Below, in pieces: positions 6,566-58,634 of a stretch of DNA of 58,634 bases. The DNA comes from a virus. The stretch lies in IMG/VR virus record IMGVR_UViG_3300045988_080144; one strand, given 5' to 3'. Numbering within the stretch: the stretch's first letter is position 1; every line of letters begins with the position of its first letter. Under the pieces are notes generated by a model. It did not search any database. It was not told where the DNA came from and worked only from the letters and a program-made list of their open reading frames with translations. A program made the position numbers and the translations under genes.

Positions 6566-6874
6566 ATGTCTAAAAGTGATTTTGATGTCAGGTCATACGC
6601 ATATCAAAGCACCGATGAATCGGGCGGCGGGATGGTTCTTGCCTATTTTAACGGAAATCAAGAAGTACCAGATGAAACACTTCTGTGTAACGGAAAATCT
6701 TATCAGCGAGTGGATCGCCTTGGAATTGATTATGACTCCATCCCAGACCACCAGAGATATTCCCTTGCCAAAATGGCGATTGACGTTACACAGCAAGTAA
6801 TGAACGACCCGGAACTCAGAGCGAAATACGATCAGTATATCAAAGAAAAGAGACGCAGAAAGAATAGCAAATGA
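6566..6874 (+). CDS. Hypothetical protein (102 aa) in an AT-richer island
   Basis: AGGAGG RBS and complete ORF. Basic C-terminus KEKRRRKNSK. Confidence 0.5.
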   Translation: MSKSDFDVRSYAYQSTDESGGGMVLAYFNGNQEVPDETLLCNGKSYQRVDRLGIDYDSIPDHQRYSLAKMAIDVTQQVMNDPELRAKYDQYIKEKRRRKNSK

Positions 6875-6912
6875 ACCGCAACATGAACCACAAAACATAG
6901 TTTTAAAGGGTC

Positions 6913-6938
6913 ATGCACCTCAAATGAACCTCGATTTT
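6913..6938 (+). repeat. Direct repeat copy 1 (arm-type integrase site candidate)
   Basis: atgcacctcaaatgaacctcgatttt compared with atgcacctcaaaatgaatctcatttt at 7135-7160. Confidence 0.5.
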
Positions 6939-6980
6939 TTATGTTTTTCTTTGCTCGGTTATATCAGAGTTTATCAAAAG

Positions 6981-7016
6981 AAAAAAGCCAGAAACCATTG
7001 CGGTTTCTGGCTTTTC
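6981..7016. terminator. Strong bidirectional terminator downstream of int
   Basis: A6, then the perfect 10-bp stem gccagaaacc/ggtttctggc, then TTTT. Confidence 0.75.
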
Positions 7017-7134
7017 TTGAAAACTCAACGCTTCGAGAACTGCGGTGCGCGTCTCGCGGCTTTGAGACCGTACTTCTGAAATCCTCGCGTGAAAAGTCCC
7101 CTATTTTCAATGACTTTACGATTTTATAATTTCT

Positions 7135-7160
7135 ATGCACCTCAAAATGAATCTCATTTT
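7135..7160 (+). repeat. Direct repeat copy 2 (overlaps the integrase stop codon)
   Basis: See 6913-6938. An additional atgcacc lies at 7174-7180. Confidence 0.5.
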
Positions 7161-8350
7161 GGATTATTTGCAAATGCACCATTGACCTTTGAGATCAGGT
7201 CTTTCGGCTGATTATAGGTCAGATGCGCGTAGATGTCCAGTGTTATTTTCGCGTGTTCGTGACCGGCAAGAACCTGCACGGTCTTGACATCTACTCCCGC
7301 CAGCAGAAGGTTTGTGATGTACGTATGCCGAAGCTGGTGTGGCGTTACCTGAAAGTCCATGCTATATACAACATTTGCATTGTGCGCTGCCTTTTGACCC
7401 AAAACCGGCGTGACGGTGTGCTTGATTTTCTGCCCATTCACATATCTGGTGTAGGTGCGCTCCTTGGTGCTGCGGACAGTGACATACTTCCAGAGCCTCC
7501 CCCATTGTGTGCCAGACAACGACTGCCCCTCGCTGCTTGCAATGACATAATCCGAAATCGAAGATTCTTTCACTTCTTTCAGACAATCGACGAGCTGCGG
7601 AGGAATTGGGATTGTCCGCTTTGCCGCTTTTGTTTTCAACTCGGTTGTCACGACCGGGCGGTTGTGTTCGATGTGCCAGGCACGGCAAACGATGATGTGC
7701 GGCGCAGCCCCATCCAGGAATACGCTATCCCATTGCAGTGCGAGGGCTTCTTCTCTGCGCAGGCCCGCATACAGGCAGAGCATAATAAACGGATATGGCG
7801 GCAGACCGCGCACCGCGTCCAAGAGGGTCTGCACCTGCTCTGTGGTGAGCGCCGTTTTCTCTTTCGGCGCTTTGCCGCCTTTTGGATTCAGATTCTTGCA
7901 CGGCGATTCGTCGATGATTTTGCTTTGCTCTGCCGATGTGAAAATCAGCTTGTACAGCATCTGGACGCTGCGGTAGATCGACGCCGATTTTGATGCAGCC
8001 TTTGTAATCGCCATCTTCACATCGTCGGGCGTGATCTCCTGCATATACCGATCGCCTAGCGGCTCGATGATATAGATTTTGACCTTGGAGGTATAGTCAG
8101 CCAGCGTAGTTACCCGAATGCTCGAAGTCTGCATGGTAAGCCACTTTTCTGCATACTCCCGGACTGTGGGATTCTCGCGCCGATACACAGCTTCTTCGAT
8201 CTGCCGCTGGGCAAGAGCGACCTTTTCCGTTAGCTCATCTGGCGTCTGCGCGTAAAGGGCGATGTATTTGCCCTCCGGCCCCTTGATGCGCTTCCGGTAT
8301 TCATTTCGGCTGGGGATAAACTCATATGTTGGTTTCTTCGGCCGAGCCAT
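7154..8350 (-). CDS. int: Tyrosine recombinase / phage integrase
   Basis: C-terminal catalytic signature HQLRHTYITNLLLAGVDVKTVQVLAGHEHAKITLDIYAHL (R..HxxR..Y) and an N-terminal SAM-like core-binding region. Confidence 0.9.
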   Translation of the reverse strand: MARPKKPTYEFIPSRNEYRKRIKGPEGKYIALYAQTPDELTEKVALAQRQIEEAVYRRENPTVREYAEKWLTMQTSSIRVTTLADYTSKVKIYIIEPLGDRYMQEITPDDVKMAITKAASKSASIYRSVQMLYKLIFTSAEQSKIIDESPCKNLNPKGGKAPKEKTALTTEQVQTLLDAVRGLPPYPFIMLCLYAGLRREEALALQWDSVFLDGAAPHIIVCRAWHIEHNRPVVTTELKTKAAKRTIPIPPQLVDCLKEVKESSISDYVIASSEGQSLSGTQWGRLWKYVTVRSTKERTYTRYVNGQKIKHTVTPVLGQKAAHNANVVYSMDFQVTPHQLRHTYITNLLLAGVDVKTVQVLAGHEHAKITLDIYAHLTYNQPKDLISKVNGAFANNPK

Positions 8351-8402
8351 TTAGCATATCCCCCTTATGAGTGTGAAATGTTTCCTTTTAGCTGTACTTG
8401 GC

Positions 8403-9017
8403 TTACTGAGCTTCTTCCGGAAGGAAAAGCAGAAGGTCATCATTTGCGGACTGAATTTCAGAAATCAAATCGCTGACATTGGAAGCGAAGTGGCCTCTTG
8501 AACCAGACGGATTGAGAATGGTATCGTAAAGCTCAGAGTATCCGTCATAGAGTGCACGCACACCAGCGTCAATCTCTGCAGCTTCTGCGTTATCTCCGAA
8601 GTCTGTCAGAATTAGCTCTTTGTATGCTGAACAGATGCTTTCATAATTAGCTTCAACCGTTTCTTGCGACTCGTCGCTATTTTCGGCGAGCCAAGTAAAC
8701 GCCTTATCAACCATGCCGTCGCTCAGGCTTCCGAGCGCTTGCCAGTAGTTATTCTCGTAGTTTCCCATGTTGGCTAAGATCACGCTTGCCGCATACGCTT
8801 CGCTTCTGAAATCGGAGACACTTTCTTTGTAGGCTTCCAAGTCAAACTTGTCGGCTTCGATGGCATCTTCCTCGACCGTAGCATCAACTTCTGCTTCCTT
8901 TGCTGATTCCTGAGCAGCGGAATCTGGCTGCGCTGCTCTATCTGCCGAGCCGCTCCCACAGGCGCAAAAGGTTAAAACAAAAATGGAGATAAGGGCAGCG
9001 ACGATAAATTTCTTCAT
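8403..9017 (-). CDS. Secreted lipoprotein (204 aa), lysogeny-module cargo
   Basis: Signal peptide MKKFIVAALISIFVLTFCAC-GSGS with a lipobox-like Cys. Acidic mature region. Confidence 0.6.
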   Translation of the reverse strand: MKKFIVAALISIFVLTFCACGSGSADRAAQPDSAAQESAKEAEVDATVEEDAIEADKFDLEAYKESVSDFRSEAYAASVILANMGNYENNYWQALGSLSDGMVDKAFTWLAENSDESQETVEANYESICSAYKELILTDFGDNAEAAEIDAGVRALYDGYSELYDTILNPSGSRGHFASNVSDLISEIQSANDDLLLFLPEEAQ

Positions 9018-9090
9018 GGCTTCATTTCCTCCTTGTCGAAATCAAGAGAATGTTATATTTTCACGAAAAAAACCGCAAGCTGTCAGTCTG

Positions 9091-9099
9091 TGGTATAAT
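9091..9099 (+). promoter_or_regulatory. Extended -10 promoter element
   Basis: TGgTATAAT at 9091-9099, 42 nt upstream of ATG 9141. Confidence 0.4.
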
Positions 9100-9140
9100 C
9101 ATAATTGCGCCGGCAGCCCATGAGAAAAGGAGATACTGCA

Positions 9141-9302
9141 ATGTCGAGCAAAGAACTGTTGGCCATACTATGCCTTTTGGACAAGACCCCCGATGCCGTA
9201 AAGAGGAAGTTTCTTATTTTTCTCCATCAGCTGCAAGAAAGCGAAGAAAAGAGATTGCTTGCTGCTTCTTCGCTTCGGACAGACCAGCTAGAAGCGAAAT
9301 GA
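9141..9302 (+). CDS. Small 53-aa ORF convergent with, and overlapping, the 3' end of the repressor gene
   Basis: AAAGGAG RBS lies 8 nt before ATG 9141. Product MSSKELLAILCLLDKTPDAVKRKFLIFLHQLQESEEKR. Overlaps 9214-9302 antisense. Confidence 0.4.
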   Translation: MSSKELLAILCLLDKTPDAVKRKFLIFLHQLQESEEKRLLAASSLRTDQLEAK

Positions 9303-49514: not shown

Positions 49515-50175
49515 GCAGTACGGCCTCACGGTTGAGAACCTGCTGAACGTCCTCCCCGATGTGCTGCGGCAGGATGAAAAAATGCTCGCGCTCGCAACCG
49601 GCGTCGCGGAGATCCTGACGGCGCGGCCGGCCGAGATTGAGCAGAATATGCTCTATCAGCACATCGACACTCTGCCAGAAGATCTTCTCGACCAGCTTGC
49701 GCACGACTTCGGCGTAAGCTGGTGGGACAACGACTGGGATATTGAGCAGAAGCGCGCCACGTTCCGCGAGTCCTGGCACGTTCGCCGCCACCTCGGCACG
49801 AAGTACGCCGTCGAGCTGGCGTTGTCCACTTCGTTCGGCTCCGGTAAGGTGCAGGAATGGTTTGAATATGGCGGCGAGCCGAATCACTATCGCATCTTTG
49901 ACGTTGACATCAGACAGGTCAACGACAATATCCGCACGTTCCTGCAGATCCTCGAAGTTGTCAGCCGTAAGAGCGCGGTGCTGGACAGTATTCGTGCAAT
50001 TTCCGTCCGTGAGCTGATTCTGTACTTCGGCGCGGTTATGAGCGTCACGAAGAAATTCAAGCTCACCACGGGCGAGGTCAATACGGACATTGACATCATG
50101 GGCGACGAAGCCGGGAACGCCCTGTGCGACTGGGACGGCGGTCTGATTATGATGGATAAGGAGGCAACGGTATGA
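49507..50175 (+). CDS. Tail protein I-like (P2 gpI / XkdU class)
   Basis: Product LLNVLPDVLRQDEKMLALA...LLDQLAHDFGVSWWD. Confidence 0.65.
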   Translation: MNEQYGLTVENLLNVLPDVLRQDEKMLALATGVAEILTARPAEIEQNMLYQHIDTLPEDLLDQLAHDFGVSWWDNDWDIEQKRATFRESWHVRRHLGTKYAVELALSTSFGSGKVQEWFEYGGEPNHYRIFDVDIRQVNDNIRTFLQILEVVSRKSAVLDSIRAISVRELILYFGAVMSVTKKFKLTTGEVNTDIDIMGDEAGNALCDWDGGLIMMDKEATV

Positions 50176-51221
50176 CACACTGGTTGACCCCGGATGGGTA
50201 CAACGTCATGCTTCGCGGGCTCATGGGCGACGCGATCAAATTCACACGCATCAAATACGGCAACGGTACGCCGGGTGACGGCGCGAACGATCTGAAGAAC
50301 CCGTTGCTCTCTCTGAAAATTGCTTCTGCGACGCGCAGCGAGAAGTACGTCACACTGTCTGTGTCGTTCAAGAATGTCGAGCTGGAGATCACCGGCTTCT
50401 GGGCAACCGAAATTGGCATTTACGTCGAGGACCCCGACGATTCCACGAAGGAACTCTGCTATTGCATCTGGGAGGAAACAGAGGTCGAGAAAGCCGACTA
50501 TATCAACCCCAACGTCGAGCGCCTGCTTGCATCGCAGTACGACTTTGTGGTGTTCGTCAGCGAGGCCAAAAACGTGTCTGCGGCGCTTGGTGAAACGCTG
50601 GTCTACGCAACCGTTACGGAACTGAACAATCACAAAAACGACAAGAACAATCCACACAAGGTGACCAAGGAGCAGATCGGGCTTGGAAACGTGGAAAACA
50701 AGGCTCTGATCGACCAGACGCCCACCTTTGCGACAGCAAAGGAGCTGTCGGATATTTCATCCGGCGAGAAGATGGGGTCTATCCTCGGAAAGATTGCAAA
50801 GGCGCTGTCACTGCTGAAATCGCACCTTTCCGACTTCAACAATCCGCATCAGGTAAAAGCCGCCGATATTGGCGCCGCTGCGTCGACGCACTCGCACAAC
50901 GCAAATGACATCAACGATGGCACGGTCATTGTGCAGCGCGGTGGTACTGGCCGCAACGAGTGGACGAAGAACTGCATCGTTTTCGCGGACGGTGAGAAAT
51001 CGCTTGGGCAGGTCTCGGCACCATCGGAGGTTTCGCTTCTGGCGCAGGGGCCTGATTCCGCCCCTGTCTTTATGAAGTTGTCCAGTCTGGCGTTGTTTGT
51101 CACCGGCAACACGCCGCCGACGCAGAAGAATCTTTTCTGGATTGATCCGACGCCTGTTACCGGCGGCTTGAAGTATTGGAACGACACCGACTGGGAGCAC
51201 GTTCCTGTTGCTTATTCTTGA
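50172..51221 (+). CDS. Tail fibre protein (proximal)
   Basis: Tail-collar-like N-terminus; NPHKVTKEQIGLGNVENK and NPHQVKAADIGAA...HSH fibre motifs. Confidence 0.7.
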   Translation: MTHWLTPDGYNVMLRGLMGDAIKFTRIKYGNGTPGDGANDLKNPLLSLKIASATRSEKYVTLSVSFKNVELEITGFWATEIGIYVEDPDDSTKELCYCIWEETEVEKADYINPNVERLLASQYDFVVFVSEAKNVSAALGETLVYATVTELNNHKNDKNNPHKVTKEQIGLGNVENKALIDQTPTFATAKELSDISSGEKMGSILGKIAKALSLLKSHLSDFNNPHQVKAADIGAAASTHSHNANDINDGTVIVQRGGTGRNEWTKNCIVFADGEKSLGQVSAPSEVSLLAQGPDSAPVFMKLSSLALFVTGNTPPTQKNLFWIDPTPVTGGLKYWNDTDWEHVPVAYS

Positions 51222-51239
51222 TCTTAGGAGGACTCTCGC

Positions 51240-51533
51240 ATGAAAATTCAGATTGAAGCCGAACTGTCCAATTACATCGAATCCCTGCATTATGACCGTA
51301 ATTCCATTCAGGAGCTGCTGCTCATGGCGTCAAAGCAGGGCTTGAAGGACACCGACGCATACAACGCATGGATGAAGGACTACCTCGGCAAGAGCAAGGA
51401 ATACGAGATCGCAAAAGCGACGCTGGAACGTGAGTTTATCATTCCTGCCGTCGGCAATGCAGCGGTTGACTGGGTGCTTGATTTCTCGACCGCCACGGTG
51501 ACGGTGACGCCGCGGGAGCAGACCGATGACTAG
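51240..51533 (+). CDS. Hypothetical protein (97 aa), fibre-module accessory
   Basis: Complete ORF. Its stop overlaps the rSAM gene start. Confidence 0.45.
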   Translation: MKIQIEAELSNYIESLHYDRNSIQELLLMASKQGLKDTDAYNAWMKDYLGKSKEYEIAKATLEREFIIPAVGNAAVDWVLDFSTATVTVTPREQTDD

Positions 51534-52842
51534 GCCACAGGAAACCTTCACCGATATGCTGGCGCGGCTTTTCCCCATGCCGGGTATCCAGCTTGGCATC
51601 AACTCGCCGCACTCCAAGTGCATTACATTTCAGGTGACGGAAGACTGCAACCTGCGCTGCAGCTACTGCTATCAGGGCTGCAAGACGCACCGGAAGATGT
51701 CGCTTGAAACCGCCAAGGCCGCCGTCGATATGCTGCTCGCCGCAGACGAGCGGACAAATCAGTACATCACGTCCACGGAGGTTGCCGGGGTCGTTCTTGA
51801 CTTTATCGGCGGTGAGCCGCTGCTGGAAGTCGAGCTGATCGACCAGATCCTCGACTACTTCGTGGCGCAGACCTTCCGCCTGCATCATCCATGGGCGACG
51901 CGCTGGAAAGCGTCGATGTCCACAAACGGAACGCTGTACTTCCGCCCGGAGGTACAGCGGTTTTTGGATAAGTGGGCAAAGCACCTGTCGCTCTCCATCA
52001 GCATTGACGGAGATAAGCAGCTCCACGATTCCTGCCGCGTCTTCCCGGACGGCTCTGGCAGCTATGATCTTGCTATCGCGGCCGCGAAGGATTACATGAC
52101 CAAGGGAAACGCCCTTGGCTCGAAGATGACGATTGCTCCCGGCAACGTCGATTATCTGTACCACGCAGTAATCGGTCTGCTGGACGCGGGGTATCGGGCG
52201 ATCAATCTGAACTGCGTTTACGAAAAGGGCTGGACGCTCGACCATGCGGCTACACTCTACACACAGCTCAAACGGCTCGCCGATTTCGTCCTGCTCTCGG
52301 ACGAGCAGCCGTATCTGTCAATCTTCAGCGAAAGCGTCGGCCATCCGCTTCCGGAGGACGATAATCAGAACTGGTGCGGCGGTACGGGGCTTATGCTGGC
52401 GGTTGACTGCGATGGCCTGTTCTTCCCGTGCCTGCGCTACATGGGAACCTCCCTCGGCCATGAGCAGCGGCCCTATGCCATCGGCGATCTGGAACACGGC
52501 ATCAACGTTCTTCCGGAACATCGGGCGCGGGTGGCAGAAATGGCCGCAGTCACGCGGCGCAGCCAGTCCACCGACGAATGCTTTGCGTGCCCGATCGCGT
52601 CCGGCTGCTCTTGGTGCAGCGCGTACAACTACCAATGCACAGGGACTCCGGATAAGCGCGTGACGTACATCTGCCCGATGCACAAGGCCCGCGTCCTGGC
52701 GAACGCCTACTACTGGAACAAGCTGCACCGCAGGCAGGGCGAGAGGACACGGTATCGGCTGGATATTCCCGACGATTGGGCGCTTGAGATCATCTCAGAT
52801 GCAGAGCTGGAAATGCTCAAATCTCTATCCAAGGAGGGCTGA
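51526..52842 (+). CDS. Radical SAM / SPASM-domain peptide maturase (anSME-like; CXXX-repeat-target type)
   Basis: CNLRCSYC (CX3CX2C) near the N-terminus. C-terminal auxiliary-cluster cysteines WCGG...CDGLFFPC...[20 protein letters not shown]...ICPM. Confidence 0.85.
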
Positions 52843-52844
52843 TT

Positions 52845-53567
52845 ATGGCATATATCGAGGCTGAACGCTTCGCGGCTCTGAAAGCGCGTGTCAAGGCCGA
52901 GTGCCTGCGGCGCTGCCATACCGGATCTGTTGCGGAATACGGCGGCGAAAAATACGAATACACGAACAGCCCCACCGAAGATCACACCGTCGACGTGGAG
53001 CATTATGAGAAGCTGGCGCTTCCGCTGTCGAAGATCCACAGCGAGAAAGTGCCGAGCCTTGACGGCCGCAGAATCGTGTTTGACGAGGACATCACCGAGT
53101 TTGAAGCGGCGTTGACGCTCTTTGAAACACGCCCCATGACGGACAAGACGCGGGGTGACTGTGAAACGTCCTGCACGGGAGCTTGCTACACCGGCTGTTC
53201 TGGAGACTGCACAGGCGGCTGCGAAACGACGTGCTCCGGAGAATGTCAAGGTTCCTGCACGGGCTGCGGAAGCGGCTGTGCGAACACCTGCGAAGGCTCC
53301 TGCTCCGGCGGCTGCTATGGCTGCGGCGGCAACTGCACGGGAGGCTGCTCTGGCTCCTGTGATGGTAGCTGCTCTGGTTGCTCTGGTTCCTGTTCTGGCG
53401 GCTGTTCCAGCAGTTGTTCTGGCGGCTGCAAATCGTCCTGCACAGTGACCTGCGGCAACACTGGCTGCGTCGGCTCGTGCCTTGGCCTTTGTTCTGCCGG
53501 CTGCACGACCTCGTGCCAGACGTCCTGCGGCTATTGCGGGACAAACTGCACAGCCGTATCGAAGTAA
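52845..53567 (+). CDS. CXXX-repeat protein: 105-aa N-terminal domain plus 135-aa core with 34 Cys
   Basis: GGAGGG RBS. The core is encoded at 53160-53564. Inter-Cys spacing is 3 residues in 28 of 33 intervals (hand count). Confidence 0.8.
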
Positions 53568-53579
53568 GGAGGTAGCCCT

Positions 53580-54128
53580 TTGGAAATTGCAAGTAAATAC
53601 GAAATCGCTGCGGCGAACCTCGCAATCGCTTTGCAGACGGACACGGTTTCCGTCGAGCAGCGAAGTGAGCTGCGAGCGGCAATCGGCAGCAGCATCGACA
53701 AACTCGTCGACGCGCTCAACATGATTATCGTCTGCTACAACAAGCGAATGTACGCTGGCGAGATCGCGCCCGAAAAAGCCGCAAAGTGCGTCAAGGCAGA
53801 ATACGCCGCCATCGGCCTTTCCAACGTGGTCGCATACGATTATTTCTCCGCGGCGGTCGGTGCGTTCTTCACGCGCAAAACCCTGATGGCGCTGTCGACC
53901 GATGAAAAGCTCGCGTGGGTGAAAACGGTCTTCGAGCAGAACGAACGCTGCGGCTGTCAGCGCGTCAAAGATGCGCTGTTCATCTACTGCCTGCGGCTGC
54001 TGTCGCACATGGGCATCGTCACAGCGGATCTCTCTTTCACGAACCTCGTCATGCGCGAGATCAACGCCATCACGGAAGACCGAAAGAACGCCGCGATCAT
54101 GCCGCAGGCGCTCGTCACGGAATTGTAA
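53580..54128 (+). CDS. Helical partner protein of the rSAM/CXXX cassette (182 aa)
   Basis: AAGGAGG lies 7 nt before TTG 53580. No recognisable domain. Confidence 0.55.
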   Translation: MEIASKYEIAAANLAIALQTDTVSVEQRSELRAAIGSSIDKLVDALNMIIVCYNKRMYAGEIAPEKAAKCVKAEYAAIGLSNVVAYDYFSAAVGAFFTRKTLMALSTDEKLAWVKTVFEQNERCGCQRVKDALFIYCLRLLSHMGIVTADLSFTNLVMREINAITEDRKNAAIMPQALVTEL

Positions 54129-54139
54129 GGGGTGATCGT

Positions 54140-55183
54140 ATGGCAGTAGAAAACGTAAATTCCAAGCCGATTGCCGCTTCTGCGGCGATTGCCGACTTTA
54201 TCCTCGCATCGATTGGCGGCAAGGTTCGCCGTGTTCCGATCAGCACCCTTGCTGAAACACTCACCGATGCCGAAGTTGAGCTTATCAGCGCCGCTGCGTC
54301 TGCGCTGGTGTCGGCTGCGGGCAGAGCCTGTTATATCGGCACAAATGAAAACTGGTACGTATGGGATGGCGCACAGGGCGCGTTCGTCGATTCGGGGTAT
54401 CCATCGCGCGGCACACAGGGCGAACCCGGCGTAATCTTTACGCCGCACGTGACCGAAGCCGGTATTCTGAGCTGGACGAACAACGGCGGTCTTCCGAACC
54501 CAGAACCGGTCAGCCTGCTCGGCCCTGCGGGCGGCGTGACTTCGTTCAATAGCCGTTCCGGTGCGGTCGTCCCGAAAAACGGTGACTATACCGCAGAGAT
54601 GGTCGGAGCGGAAGAAAAAGACGCCGTCAAGAATCACAACGAGTCCGAGACCGCGCACAAAGATCTGTTCAATGCGAAACTGAATAAGGACGGCGACGGC
54701 GGCACTCTGAAACCTACCTTCACGCAGTCCGCAACGAGAACGCAGCTTGAATCCGGTCTGGAAATGAAAGTCCTTCTTGGACGCATTATGAAGTGGCTGG
54801 CCGACCTCGGCTCTGCGGCGTTCAAAGACAGCGGAAATTTTGAATCCGCAGGTGCTGGTGACGCAGCGGTTTCCGCGCACAACACCGCTGTGCAGGCCCA
54901 CGCTGACCTGTTTGCAAAAAAAGCCGGCAAGGGCATCGCGTTCACGCTCACACTTTCTGTCGCAGGATGGTCGAATCTTGCACAGACGCTGGAAGATGCG
55001 CGCTTCCTCGACGCCGAGTATGCCTATATCGTGACGCCGACGGCCGACAGCCTCACGGCGTGGGGCGACGCAGGAATCCGCGTCGGTGACATTACGGAGA
55101 ACGGCAAAATGCCGTTTACCTGCACAGATACGCCGGCAAGCGCAATCACAGTAAATATTTACAGAGCGGAGGTCGCACAATGA
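54140..55183 (+). CDS. Tail fibre protein (347 aa)
   Basis: ATG 54140. Short collagen-like GTQGEPG; fibre-like His motifs ETAHKDLF and AVQAHADLF. Confidence 0.55.
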   Translation: MAVENVNSKPIAASAAIADFILASIGGKVRRVPISTLAETLTDAEVELISAAASALVSAAGRACYIGTNENWYVWDGAQGAFVDSGYPSRGTQGEPGVIFTPHVTEAGILSWTNNGGLPNPEPVSLLGPAGGVTSFNSRSGAVVPKNGDYTAEMVGAEEKDAVKNHNESETAHKDLFNAKLNKDGDGGTLKPTFTQSATRTQLESGLEMKVLLGRIMKWLADLGSAAFKDSGNFESAGAGDAAVSAHNTAVQAHADLFAKKAGKGIAFTLTLSVAGWSNLAQTLEDARFLDAEYAYIVTPTADSLTAWGDAGIRVGDITENGKMPFTCTDTPASAITVNIYRAEVAQ

Positions 55184-57051
55184 GCAAAGTATTTCAGATG
55201 CTCGGCGGAAGCGGCGGCAGTATCAAGCTCGCGTCCATTGAGATCACAACGCCGCCCACAAAGACCGCCTACAAGGCTGGTGAGCAGTTTTCGACGGCTG
55301 GCATGGTTGTCAAGGCGACGTATTCCAACGGCGCCACGCTGATTGCAACAGGCGTATCGGTCGAGCCAAGCGGCGGTCTGGAAGCAGGTCGCACCAGCGT
55401 CACCATCCGATACACGGAGGGCGGCGTATCCTGCACCGCAACACAGGCGATCACAGTCACCAAGACGAATGTGACCGTGCCGAGCCAGAGCGGAAGCCTG
55501 ACCTATTCAGGCAGCTCGCAAAGCCCGGCATGGTACAACTACGATACGACGAAAATGACGCTCGGCGGCACGACCAGTGGCACGAACGCCGGCAATTACA
55601 GCGCGAAGTTTACGCTGAAAGACACAGCCCTCTATCAGTGGGCAGACGGCTCGACCGCTCCGAAAACCGTATCGTGGAAGATCGGCAAGGCAGATGGCTC
55701 ACTGACGCTCAGCAAGACTTCGATCAAGCTGGAAGACGGAAAACTGACAGATTCTTTCACGGTCACACGGCTTGGCACAGGAACAATCACAGCCGTGTCC
55801 AACCGCCCCGATATTGCCAGTGTTTCCATTTCGGGAAATATTGTGACCGTCCACAGCGTCGATGAAAACTCCGGCACGGTTACGATCACGGTTTCCGTTG
55901 CCAGCGACACGAACTACAACGCGCCGGCAAGCAAGACCTGCACCGTGTCGTGCGTGTTCGTGACAATCTTCGGCGTCTGCTGGACGTACAGCAACTCCTC
56001 TCCGGCTCTTTCCCGCCTGACGCCGAGCAACGACCCGAACGGCTATGTCAATGCCGCCGTGTCCTCGGAGCCGAGCGCTGCCATCGGCACAGGCGCTGGC
56101 AGCTCTCCATTCGACGCATTCATGCCGTGGCAAGGCATGGAGGAATACAACATCATCAACGGCGCGGTGTCGTACAAAAAGGGACAGTCCGGATTCTCCC
56201 GCACGTCCTACGATACGATGGTCTTTATCCCTGAGTTTTACTACAAGATCGTCTATAACAGCAGCCAGAGCAAGATCTATTACTACGTTGCAAACGCGCC
56301 GTTCACCGGCTTTGCCAAGCACCCCGGTTCCGGTCGCTATGTTGGACGATACAATACGATCTCCGGCTATGCCTCCAAATCTGGTGCAAATCCGCTGACG
56401 AGCATGACGCGCGCCACAGCCCGCGCAAACTCCCGGAACAAGGGCAGCAAGTGGCAGCAGTACGATTATGCGTCGTGGTGCGCGGTCTGGCTGCTCTATC
56501 TCGTCGAGTATGCAAACTGGGATAGCCAGAGCAAAATCGGCAACGGTATTGTCGGCAATTCCTCGCTGCAGAAGACGGGTACGACGGACAGCATGACCTA
56601 CCACACCGGCACGGTCGCTTCCGCCAGGACAGGCTATGGCGGCGTACAGTATCGCGGCATTGAAAACCCGTGGGGCAATGTCTATGACTGGATTGACGGC
56701 ATCAACTTCAACAACCGCGCGGCTTATATCTGCACCGATCCGTCGAAGTACGCAGACGATACGTCCACCAACTACACGGCGGCTGGGCTCAGCCTGCCGA
56801 GCAGCGGCAATATCAAAACGCTCGGAAACTGCACGGCCCTCCCATGGGCATTTATTCCGACGGGAACCGGTGGCAGCGGCACGACCTACGTGCCAGACTA
56901 CGTGTACTCGTATTCTGGCTGGTGTGTTCTCTGCGTCGGTGGCTACTGCAGGTATGATGCTGCGTACTGCGGCCTGTTCTTTTTCAATGGCAACTACGAT
57001 TCGTCCGGCGCGGGCTCGAGCATCGGCGCGCGCCTCCTTTACGTCCCCTAA
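55180..57051 (+). CDS. DGR target: distal fibre/receptor-binding protein with Ig-like N-terminal repeats and a C-type-lectin/FGE-like C-terminal domain carrying the VR
   Basis: ATGA overlap at 55180. The C-terminus ...YSGWCVLCVGGYCRYDAAYCGLFFFNGNYDSSGAGSSIGARLLYVP matches the TR. Confidence 0.85.
   Translation: MSKVFQMLGGSGGSIKLASIEITTPPTKTAYKAGEQFSTAGMVVKATYSNGATLIATGVSVEPSGGLEAGRTSVTIRYTEGGVSCTATQAITVTKTNVTVPSQSGSLTYSGSSQSPAWYNYDTTKMTLGGTTSGTNAGNYSAKFTLKDTALYQWADGSTAPKTVSWKIGKADGSLTLSKTSIKLEDGKLTDSFTVTRLGTGTITAVSNRPDIASVSISGNIVTVHSVDENSGTVTITVSVASDTNYNAPASKTCTVSCVFVTIFGVCWTYSNSSPALSRLTPSNDPNGYVNAAVSSEPSAAIGTGAGSSPFDAFMPWQGMEEYNIINGAVSYKKGQSGFSRTSYDTMVFIPEFYYKIVYNSSQSKIYYYVANAPFTGFAKHPGSGRYVGRYNTISGYASKSGANPLTSMTRATARANSRNKGSKWQQYDYASWCAVWLLYLVEYANWDSQSKIGNGIVGNSSLQKTGTTDSMTYHTGTVASARTGYGGVQYRGIENPWGNVYDWIDGINFNNRAAYICTDPSKYADDTSTNYTAAGLSLPSSGNIKTLGNCTALPWAFIPTGTGGSGTTYVPDYVYSYSGWCVLCVGGYCRYDAAYCGLFFFNGNYDSSGAGSSIGARLLYVP
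56900..57039 (+). repeat. DGR variable repeat (VR)
   Basis: 128/140 identical to 57280-57419. All 12 differences lie at TR adenines. Confidence 0.9.
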
Positions 57052-57279: not shown

Positions 57280-57419
57280 ACGTGAACTCGAATTCTGGCT
57301 GGTGTGTTCTCTGCGTCGGTGGCTACTACAGGAATGATGCTGCGAACTGCGGCCTGTTCTTTTTCAATGGCAACTACAATTCGTCCAACGCGAACTCGAA
57401 CATCGGCGCGCGCCTACTT
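57280..57419 (+). repeat. DGR template repeat (TR)
   Basis: Non-coding copy of the VR. AAC/AAT-rich in the VR frame (28 adenines). Confidence 0.9.
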
Positions 57420-57550
57420 GTTTGTATGCTCCATTTCTTTGCGCAGGCTCTCCCACACCGCTTGGTGAAAATATTGCCGCTACAGGACGGGCTTTAGTAC
57501 GGCCGAAAGGTATCTGGAAAGACCCCGATGGCAAACAAGGAGCGAGGCAT
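57280..57550 (+). ncRNA. DGR TR plus spacer RNA template region
   Basis: The TR is followed by a 131-nt spacer up to the RT start. A TATAAT box lies at 57229-57234 upstream. Confidence 0.55.
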
Positions 57551-58634
57551 ATGCCAAAAAGAAAAGGATTCCTGTATGAATGGATGTGTGACAAAGAACA
57601 CATCCGCGAAGCCATTGTGTTTGGCGCGAAAGACAAACACGATCGGCGCGACGTAAGACGGGTGCTGGCCGACGTGGACGGCTTCACGGACCGCGTCTAT
57701 GATCTTCTGCAGACGCAGACTTTCGCCCCAGCCCAGCCGAAGAAGCGCAAGATCTTCGACAACAGCAGCCGAAAGTGGAGAGAGATCGAATACGTTCCGT
57801 TCTTCCCCGACGGCATTGTCCACACGTTGATGGTCTTGGCGGCGGCGCCGGTCTTCCTGCGCGGGATGAATTACTGGTGCTGCGCATCAGTACCGGGACG
57901 CGGCGGAAAGCACGCGCTTCGGCGCTGCAAGCGTGTCATTCACCACTGCAAAAAAGGAAGCCGGTACGTCTGCAAAATGGACGTTCACCACTTCTACCAT
58001 TCTGTCGACCGCCGCAAGCTGATCTGGATGCTGGCGCACAAGATTAAGGACAAGAAGTATCTAAAGCTGACGTGGGAGATCCTGCAAACCTGCGAACAGG
58101 GGCTGGCCATTGGCTTTTTCATCTGCCAGTGGCTCGCAAATTTCTATCTTGAGCCGCTCGACCGTTACATTACGACGCTCGACGGTGTGAAGTACAGCGT
58201 GCGATACATGGATGATATTGTCCTCTTTGGCCCGAACAAAAAGAAGCTGCACCGTGCGCGGAAAGCGATTGCCGAGTATCTGCAAAAGCGGCTGCGGCTG
58301 CAGATGAAAGGTAACTGGCAGGTGTTCCCCTTAAAAGCACGGCCGCTGGATTACGTCGGGTATCGCTTTTACCGCGATTATACTACCATGCGCCGAAAAA
58401 ACTTCCTGCGCTTTACGCGCCAATGCCGCAAGGTGCGCAAGAAGATCGAGCGTCACCAGCGGATCGCGTATCGGACGGCATCGGGGCTTTTGAGCCGGAT
58501 CGGCCAGCTCAAGCATTGCAATTCCGCTGCGGCGCGGAAAAAGTATGTTGACCCCATCGGGGTACGAATCTTGAAGGAGGTTGTGCGAAATGAAAGTAAG
58601 AGGCGACAATGCGCCGGCAAATGCGTTCTCGCTG
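57551..58634 (+). CDS. DGR reverse transcriptase (runs off the window end; full ORF 365 aa ending at position 93 after wrap)
   Basis: AAGGAG lies 8 nt before ATG 57551. Motifs KMDVHHFYHSVD, GLAIGFFICQWLANFYLEPLD, VRYMDDIVLFG and LDYVGYRF. Not in the ORF track because no stop occurs within the window. Confidence 0.9.
   Translation, partial: MPKRKGFLYEWMCDKEHIREAIVFGAKDKHDRRDVRRVLADVDGFTDRVYDLLQTQTFAPAQPKKRKIFDNSSRKWREIEYVPFFPDGIVHTLMVLAAAPVFLRGMNYWCCASVPGRGGKHALRRCKRVIHHCKKGSRYVCKMDVHHFYHSVDRRKLIWMLAHKIKDKKYLKLTWEILQTCEQGLAIGFFICQWLANFYLEPLDRYITTLDGVKYSVRYMDDIVLFGPNKKKLHRARKAIAEYLQKRLRLQMKGNWQVFPLKARPLDYVGYRFYRDYTTMRRKNFLRFTRQCRKVRKKIERHQRIAYRTASGLLSRIGQLKHCNSAAARKKYVDPIGVRILKEVVRNESKRRQCAGKCVLA
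58556..58634. repeat. Terminal overlap, copy 2 (identical to 1-79)
   Basis: 79/79 identity, read by eye. Confidence 0.95.

Follow-up and report, generated by a model that had tools for sequence, protein, structure and literature searches.

A radical SAM/SPASM gene set with a predicted cysteine-repeat substrate at the tail-fibre/lysis junction of prophages

Why would a phage encode, within its tail module, a radical S-adenosylmethionine (SAM) enzyme next to a protein that carries a cysteine at about every fourth position? The question is raised by a 58,634-nucleotide stretch of viral DNA, IMG/VR record IMGVR_UViG_3300045988_080144 (hereafter the window), whose gene content is that of a contractile-tailed prophage, with a large terminase, portal, major head protein, tail sheath, tape measure and baseplate wedge subunits. 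An earlier interpretation of the letters alone (the sequence-only reading) proposed that a radical SAM/SPASM enzyme (rSAM), a Cys-repeat protein and a 182-amino-acid partner crosslink or rigidify a fibre component of the virion. The three open reading frames (ORFs) lie on the + strand where that reading had placed them, and the enzyme and the Cys-repeat protein are well supported as a putative enzyme–substrate pair. The third member of the set is a different one: an overlooked 97-amino-acid ORF, termed p97 here, is the conserved third gene, and the 182-amino-acid ORF is confined to close relatives. As to what the set produces, we favour a covalently stapled element of the tail-fibre apparatus, to which we give a probability of about 0.45, its chemistry being taken by analogy from related enzymes. 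The features of the set are as follows.

51240..51533, + strand: p97, small protein of 97 amino acids, divergent TIGR04116 homolog
51526..52842, + strand: radical SAM/SPASM enzyme, 438 amino acids, identified by the TIGR04115 profile
52845..53567, + strand: Cys-repeat protein, 240 amino acids with 36 Cys, identified by Cys spacing
52845..53159, + strand: N-terminal domain of the putative substrate (N-domain), about 100 amino acids, delimited by jackhmmer conservation
53160..53549, + strand: CxxxC/CxxC array with 34 Cys (C106-C235), presumed site of modification by the enzyme
53580..54128, + strand: 182-amino-acid ORF, no family match

By its profile score, the enzyme is a member of the curated family TIGR04115, 'radical SAM peptide maturase, CXXX-repeat target family', the very name given in the sequence-only reading. 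It covers model positions 2-359 of 359 with 474.4 bits (E 2.8e-142), compared with a curated cutoff of 350 bits on the whole-protein hidden Markov model score. Next in rank come maturases that form thioethers or act on Cys, all of which stay below their cutoffs, namely PapB (181.3 bits, cutoff 340), CcpM (121 bits), QhpD (109 bits) and SCIFF (102.1 bits, cutoff 425). Grouping with the sulfatase maturases (anSME), which had been named as grounds for abandoning the proposal, was rejected, with TIGR03942 at 55.6 bits against a cutoff of 349 and no sulfatase in the operon. The enzyme also matches phrog_1802 (E 5e-81). Its SAM-cluster motif, CX3CX2C, reads C41-NLR-C45-SY-C48, and the C-terminal SPASM-type set comprises seven Cys (C284, C302, C352-x2-C355-x5-C361-x2-C364 and C383). 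Both sets had been noticed from the letters, and all of these cysteines are invariant in a 17-sequence alignment. The solved structure closest by sequence is CteB (5wgg, E 1.6e-20); the alignment starts at CteB residue 97, and the window enzyme is without the N-terminal ~96 residues of CteB. An identical protein is named as a TIGR04115 family member by JGI, and the deposited name of the protein is 'hypothetical protein [Bacteriophage sp.]'. Three homologs of 575-594 amino acids (P0059, P0089 and P0090) contain intein/Hint domains (PF07591, PF14890, PF13403).

The Cys-repeat protein holds its 34 array cysteines within the last 135 residues, and the periodicity of about four that had first drawn attention to it is borne out by the spacing. 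Exactly three residues separate the cysteines in 28 of the 33 gaps and two residues in another four, which is far from chance, with Ser, Gly and Thr filling most of the X positions. Lys and Arg are nearly absent from the array. A tandem repeat at the DNA level was ruled out, as just two short, low-scoring arrays were detected. Across 85 distinct substrates of the phage type (defined below), 70% of the Cys gaps are CxxxC and 27% are CxxC, again with small spacer residues. Their arrays span 38-375 amino acids, most of them ending 5-8 residues short of the C-terminus. With N-domains that are 97-100% identical, proteins can still differ in the length of the array, for total lengths of 157, 171, 200, 210 and 240 amino acids (P0121, P0122, P0147 and others). 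These length variants and the C-terminal variants could reflect real repeat-length polymorphism or assembly errors; Ala-rich, frame-shifted C-termini are seen in P0142 and P0159.

Ahead of the array, jackhmmer recovers the N-domain from 128 sources, where it stands N-terminal to the Cys array in all but a few, and a junction motif preceding the first Cys is conserved. Precomputed annotation places the N-domain proteins in Pfam PF27846.1. The curated target models are not reached by the window protein (TIGR04117, 11.4 bits, cutoff 50; TIGR04114, 10.1 bits, cutoff 20). The substrate protein of the window phage occurs on at least 1000 metagenomic contigs.

The small protein p97 has no direct match to the model TIGR04116, 'CXXX repeat peptide modification system protein', and is linked to it through jackhmmer convergence and profile-profile comparison. 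A jackhmmer search seeded with p97 converged on 155 hits, a single one in each locus and from 155 of the 162 sources. Most of them adjoin the rSAM gene, and the hits include proteins from the most distant loci with TIGR04116 scores of 61-89 bits. When the phage-type and TIGR04116-type alignments are compared by hhalign, they match with a probability of 95.6% (E 1.3e-8, 94 columns), and a C-terminal motif, W-x-[LI]-[DN]-F-x-T, is common to both. On these comparisons, p97 is a remote TIGR04116 homolog and not a member by the curated cutoff. Since the conserved core consists of the small protein, the enzyme and the Cys-repeat protein, the set begins at 51240.

Structurally, the AlphaFold2 (AF2) model of p97 is a long alpha-hairpin packed on a three-stranded sheet, predicted with high confidence (predicted local distance difference test, pLDDT, 97). 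Among BFVD viral models, it matches only uncharacterised gut-virome proteins. We also considered p97 as a PqqD-like recognition element for ribosomally synthesised peptides that are modified post-translationally (RiPPs); this is unsupported, as the confident model yields no PDB match better than E 0.4. In several lineages the small protein is about twice as long (205-221 amino acids; L008 3117-3782, L034 9337-9996, L050 9304-9939; P0215, P0220, P0235, P0243, P0255). The query matches twice in the representative-library hits, which points to a tandem duplication. One further copy forms the C-terminus of a 334-amino-acid protein, P0219.

Relatives were collected with the rSAM alignment as query, which gave 80 loci of species-representative bacterial genomes and another 80 from IMG/VR, a sample biased toward relatives of the query; homologs number ~5400 overall. 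A CxxxC-rich ORF, defined by at least six CxxxC on the same strand within 4 kb of the rSAM gene, is present in nearly every locus with enough flanking sequence, which extends the original pairing of the enzyme with its Cys-rich neighbour well past the window. The enzyme, a p97 homolog and a CxxxC protein are encoded on one strand in nearly all of the 161 related loci.

These loci fall into two types. The bacterial-type loci (L065-L081) are the most distant, with 40-43% rSAM identity to the window enzyme, and belong to Bacteroidales, Alphaproteobacteria, Selenomonadales and some Clostridia; all other loci, that of the window included, are of the phage type. Most targets of the bacterial type are short, some with signal-peptide-like N-termini (e.g. 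L071, L081). Nearly all encode a second SPASM maturase, TIGR04119, either as a separate protein or fused to the rSAM (it is not in L078, a short contig), and by eye the neighbours in L065 and L066 resemble a transporter and a peptidase. No N-domain was found in the bacterial-type loci by jackhmmer. TIGR04119, in turn, was found neither in the phage-type loci nor in the window, and the phage-type system lacks signal peptide, protease and transporter alike. By gene content, the phage-type system is thus a distinct variant, in which the substrate N-domain is present and TIGR04119 is absent.

The CXXX-repeat system of bacteria (TIGR04115, TIGR04116 and TIGR04119, with the targets TIGR04114/04117/04118) has been defined bioinformatically. 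The window shares with it a TIGR04115 enzyme, an adjacent TIGR04116-like protein and a CxxxC periodicity with small spacers. In contrast to the bacterial system, the window operon is without TIGR04119, signal peptide, transporter and protease, and its putative substrate has an N-domain of about 100 amino acids, fails the target models and sits in a phage tail operon. A full-text search of the published literature returned nothing on the chemistry of the TIGR04115 family, nor on the family in phage tail modules; no biochemical study was found, in line with the sequence-only reading.

Chemical precedent comes from the ranthipeptide maturases PapB/PapA (freyrasin) and CteB/CteA (SCIFF), with which the window enzyme shares the rSAM/SPASM architecture. 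CteB makes thioethers in SCIFF. PapB links Cys to Asp or Glu at position +4 in repeated Cys-X3-Asp motifs, and the repeated Cys-X3 motifs of PapA are modified one after another (PMC9413430). Unlike the PapA and CteA peptides, the phage-type substrates are proteins of 140-800 amino acids, and unlike PapA, the window array has the next Cys at position +4, with acidic residues being rare.

The genes for p97, the enzyme, the Cys-repeat protein and the 182-amino-acid ORF are one predicted, Shine-Dalgarno-linked operon, with baseplate/tail-fibre genes on its 5' side and a tail protein on its 3' side. The p97 gene (AGGAGG 8 nucleotides 5' of the ATG) has a stop that overlaps the rSAM start by 8 nucleotides, and gaps of 2 and 12 nucleotides separate the enzyme gene from the Cys-repeat gene and the latter from the 182-amino-acid ORF. 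Every gene of the set is preceded by a Shine-Dalgarno sequence of its own, including the 182-amino-acid ORF, where AAGGAGG lies ahead of a TTG start. A consensus scan from 50172 to 55183 found no promoter-like sites on the + strand. The flanking genes are listed below.

50172..51221, + strand: upstream tail fibre / virion structural protein (phrog_2163, E 3.9e-52; phrog_7037, tail fibre, E 5.6e-22)
54140..55183, + strand: first downstream gene, weak tail matches only (phrog_1565, E 0.0065)
55180..57051, + strand: second downstream gene, tail protein (phrog_5302, tail protein, E 9e-124; Big_3)

The earlier description of translationally tight genes amid tail-fibre genes is borne out. Relatives of the set are encoded on 348 IMG/VR contigs, and the baseplate genes found immediately upstream in the window are also present in 16 related loci. 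When, in 59 species-level genomes, the closest large ORFs flanking the system to the left and right were scanned against PHROGs, tail-fibre, tail-collar-fibre and minor-tail families dominated upstream, and endolysin and amidase families, plus some tail-fibre families, dominated downstream. This survey puts the system at one constant place, distally in the tail module and ahead of the lysis genes, and the link to phage tail modules supposed from the single locus proves to be general. Sequences near-identical to the window occur in uncultured Oscillospiraceae contigs, in 'Firmicutes bacterium CAG:170' and in many IMG/VR viral contigs. The hosts given in the record titles of the relatives are Oscillospiraceae, Lachnospiraceae, Eubacteriales, Christensenellaceae, Eggerthellaceae and a treponeme, which we take to be strict anaerobes. 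Culturable hosts of related prophages include Neglectibacter timonensis SN17 (L011), Eubacterium pyruvativorans i6 (L015), Anaerolentibacter hominis CSJ-1 (L030), Desnuesiella massiliensis (L031), Anaerobacterium chartisolvens DSM 27016 (L042) and Vallitalea maricola (L044). Against INPHARED, megablast with the tail module and tblastn with the N-domain and p97 returned nothing, and no cultured phage in that collection has the phage-type system.

A different arrangement is found in giant phages such as Salmonella phage SPN3US and related Erwinia phages, which have paired rSAM genes (gp102/gp103 in SPN3US). Giant-phage records (Salmonella, Erwinia, related) match the window enzyme at ~25% identity, and the best family for SPN3US gp103 is TIGR04115, at 125 bits and below the cutoff. 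Two genes upstream of gp102/gp103, an unannotated 134-amino-acid ORF ends in a CxxxC array (L162 1497-1901, corresponding to NC_027402 ~143413-143817); it is read in another frame than the annotated gp100. Genes for a DUF4376 protein and for a tail assembly chaperone lie near this locus. Homologs of p97 or of the N-domain were not found in SPN3US-type giant phages by tblastn, and these phages further differ from the window in their two rSAM genes and their facultatively anaerobic hosts.

The 182-amino-acid ORF matches nothing in NCBIfam, Pfam or PHROGs, in agreement with the initial view that it has no recognisable domain, and its sole PDB hit is weak (7o0i, E 0.009). Its proposed role as partner gene does not survive comparison: phmmer and jackhmmer find homologs only in close relatives, with rSAM identity of at least 62%. 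In other phages, the same slot after the substrate gene is filled by four other families of ORFs of ~166-185 amino acids, which have no Pfam or PHROG hits. Neither with the 182-amino-acid ORF nor among one another do these positional analogs show similarity by hhalign. As a conserved partner the ORF was thus rejected, its analogs being unrelated, and by its distribution it is lineage-specific and outside the conserved system.

How might such a set work? We postulate that the core genes would be expressed late, from the operon that also includes the baseplate and tail-fibre genes, and that the enzyme, using its SAM cluster and two auxiliary clusters, would modify the array cysteines in the reducing, anaerobic cytoplasm of the host. 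By analogy with PapB and CteB, a series of intramolecular thioethers to nearby small residues would be the most likely outcome. With the next Cys at position +4 and so few acidic residues, the thioether acceptors, if such links are formed, must be small residues or neighbouring Cys. The small protein would present or hold the substrate for the enzyme, since no recognition domain is fused to the enzyme and since, beyond enzyme and substrate, the small protein alone is universal. Given the lack of signal peptide, protease and transporter and the late expression in a tail operon, the product is expected to stay in the cell until lysis. It would then be a stapled, protease- and redox-resistant rod or linker, in or attached to the tail-fibre apparatus, with the 182-amino-acid ORF perhaps serving as a lineage-specific distal partner or chaperone.

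Gene position and two natural fusions suggest this structural role. In two viral contigs of 110-127 kb (L153, at 6797-9226, and L155), an 809-amino-acid protein combines a Cys array with two ALK/LTK-type glycine-rich domains (PF12810, 331 bits). The 906-amino-acid ORF preceding this fusion bears the same kind of glycine-rich domain, and between the two sits a 92-amino-acid repeat ORF, which by eye we take to be tail-fibre-like. In L156 (7992-9623), the Cys-repeat protein is fused in frame to an ORF of ~168 amino acids that is a separate downstream gene in L151. Judged by these fusions, the array may serve as a module within larger, mature proteins and work with whatever adjoins it. More tentatively, and at odds clearly short of even, we propose that phages of anaerobes staple a Cys-repeat module of the tail-fibre apparatus with an enzyme of their own, through many oxygen-independent links that are probably thioethers. 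Such links would serve as a substitute for disulfides, and the length of the array would set the length or stiffness of the fibre element.

Several observations weigh against the stapled tail-fibre element or complicate it. The sole PHROG match of the Cys-repeat protein is phrog_6085 (E 1.6e-5), whose function is not annotated, and it matches no annotated tail-fibre family. The AF2 model of the protein, built from a 13-sequence alignment, has an overall pLDDT of 43.6; the four helices of the N-domain reach a moderate confidence only (pLDDT 55-74), and the array (pLDDT ~30) shows no secondary structure. At these values the model is too uncertain for fold matches to be meaningful. For p97, the PDB fold search gave no match (best E 0.4), known RiPP recognition elements included. 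Asp and Glu each make up only ~1-3% per X position in the 85 arrays, and position +4 is normally the next Cys. Owing to this rarity, PapB-like Cys-Asp/Glu links cannot be the main chemistry, and PapB cannot be taken over directly as a precedent. Cargo genes, too, are carried by phages in the interval from tail fibres to lysis genes.

Substrate architecture adds further points of this kind. In L056 (3544-4221) the domain order is reversed, with the conserved domain after the array. Many loci have a tandem second substrate (L012 8316-9653, L015 8362-9345, L027 851-1957, L120 8325-9653). The first member of such a pair consists of an N-domain and a short array, while the second, of 180-400 amino acids, starts with 'MACSxGCGTSC…', is nearly all array and is without the N-domain. 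Neither the second substrates without N-domain nor the reversal in L056 is easily squared with a simple scheme of an N-terminal anchor followed by a rod, or with that of a simple leader peptide. Some of the Cys-repeat ORF pairs are in frame; read-through of the stop codon was rejected as an explanation, since the second ORF of every pair comes with a Shine-Dalgarno sequence and an ATG of its own.

The address of the system can be read in another way, because accessory genes are commonly found just ahead of the lysis genes. The array could then be cargo, an accessory RiPP-like product (bacteriocin-like, adhesive or signalling) that is released at lysis or made by the lysogen, with the N-domain as a large leader recognised by the small protein and the enzyme. 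Such an account fits the parent family, which is one of peptide maturation with signal-peptide-like substrates in some bacterial-type loci, and the pairing of a conserved N-domain with a hypervariable array, joined by the conserved junction motif before the first Cys, resembles leader and core. Yet the phage-type system encodes none of the protease, transporter or signal peptide functions, the window genes are coupled within a late tail operon between a tail fibre gene and a tail protein gene, and some substrates have no N-domain to act as leader. The product is also hardly peptide-like, as arrays reach 375 amino acids and are found joined to glycine-rich domains and, elsewhere, to the downstream ORF. 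On balance, we consider cargo rather unlikely. The fusion to glycine-rich domains bears equally on the idea of an assembly factor, in which the small protein and the modified Cys-repeat protein would help to build the tail fibre as scaffold or chaperone without ending up in the mature phage, as it suggests that the array is part of a mature protein. The location among tail-fibre genes, where fibre chaperone genes normally lie, would suit an assembly factor, as would the fast-evolving ORFs of ~170-185 amino acids after the substrate gene, a kind of position that fibre assembly proteins often take. No similarity to known tail-fibre assembly proteins was found, however, and we know of no precedent for a dedicated radical SAM enzyme that modifies a transient chaperone, so that this role appears improbable.

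An array rich in cysteines might, finally, bind metal or Fe-S clusters in the manner of a metallothionein, with the enzyme carrying out another reaction or using the array as a reservoir of clusters or sulfur. The 27% share of CxxC gaps and the small spacers are as expected of metal-binding Cys clusters, and no published determination of the chemistry of this enzyme family was found. Against this stand the placement of the enzyme in the SPASM peptide-maturase group, whose nearest characterised relatives act on Cys of a neighbouring substrate, and the strict gene-for-gene co-occurrence of the array with a dedicated enzyme and helper, which indicates an enzyme–substrate pair. We consider metal binding very unlikely.

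Two further features of the window lie outside the gene set. A diversity-generating retroelement targets the C-terminus of the downstream tail protein (55180..57051), with a variable repeat (VR) at 56900-57039 and a template repeat (TR) at 57280-57419. The two 140-nucleotide copies are 91% identical, and the downstream copy has A at 13 of 13 mismatches. They are followed by a reverse-transcriptase ORF (~57550-58634) that runs past the window end and carries a YMDD motif (…VRYMDDIVLFG…). Between the tail sheath and tape measure genes, a 173-amino-acid ORF at 41013-41534 matches phrog_55 ('head closure'); this label may mislead, because the tail tube gene normally occupies that position.

Curated models for the radical SAM family and its bacterial partners were known already, as were the PHROGs families phrog_1802 (enzyme) and phrog_6085 (array). 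The distinct three-gene version at the tail-fibre/lysis junction of hundreds of prophages, most of whose hosts are strictly anaerobic gut Clostridia, is the first biological context for the family. If the structural reading is true, the system would be the only case, to our knowledge, of a phage-encoded radical SAM enzyme that modifies a virion component. It would then provide covalent particle stability without disulfides in anaerobes, by RiPP chemistry applied to a structural protein of the virion, and protein engineers would gain a naturally occurring scaffold with multiple staples. As cargo, by contrast, the product would be RiPP-like, carried by phages and very widespread in the human gut.

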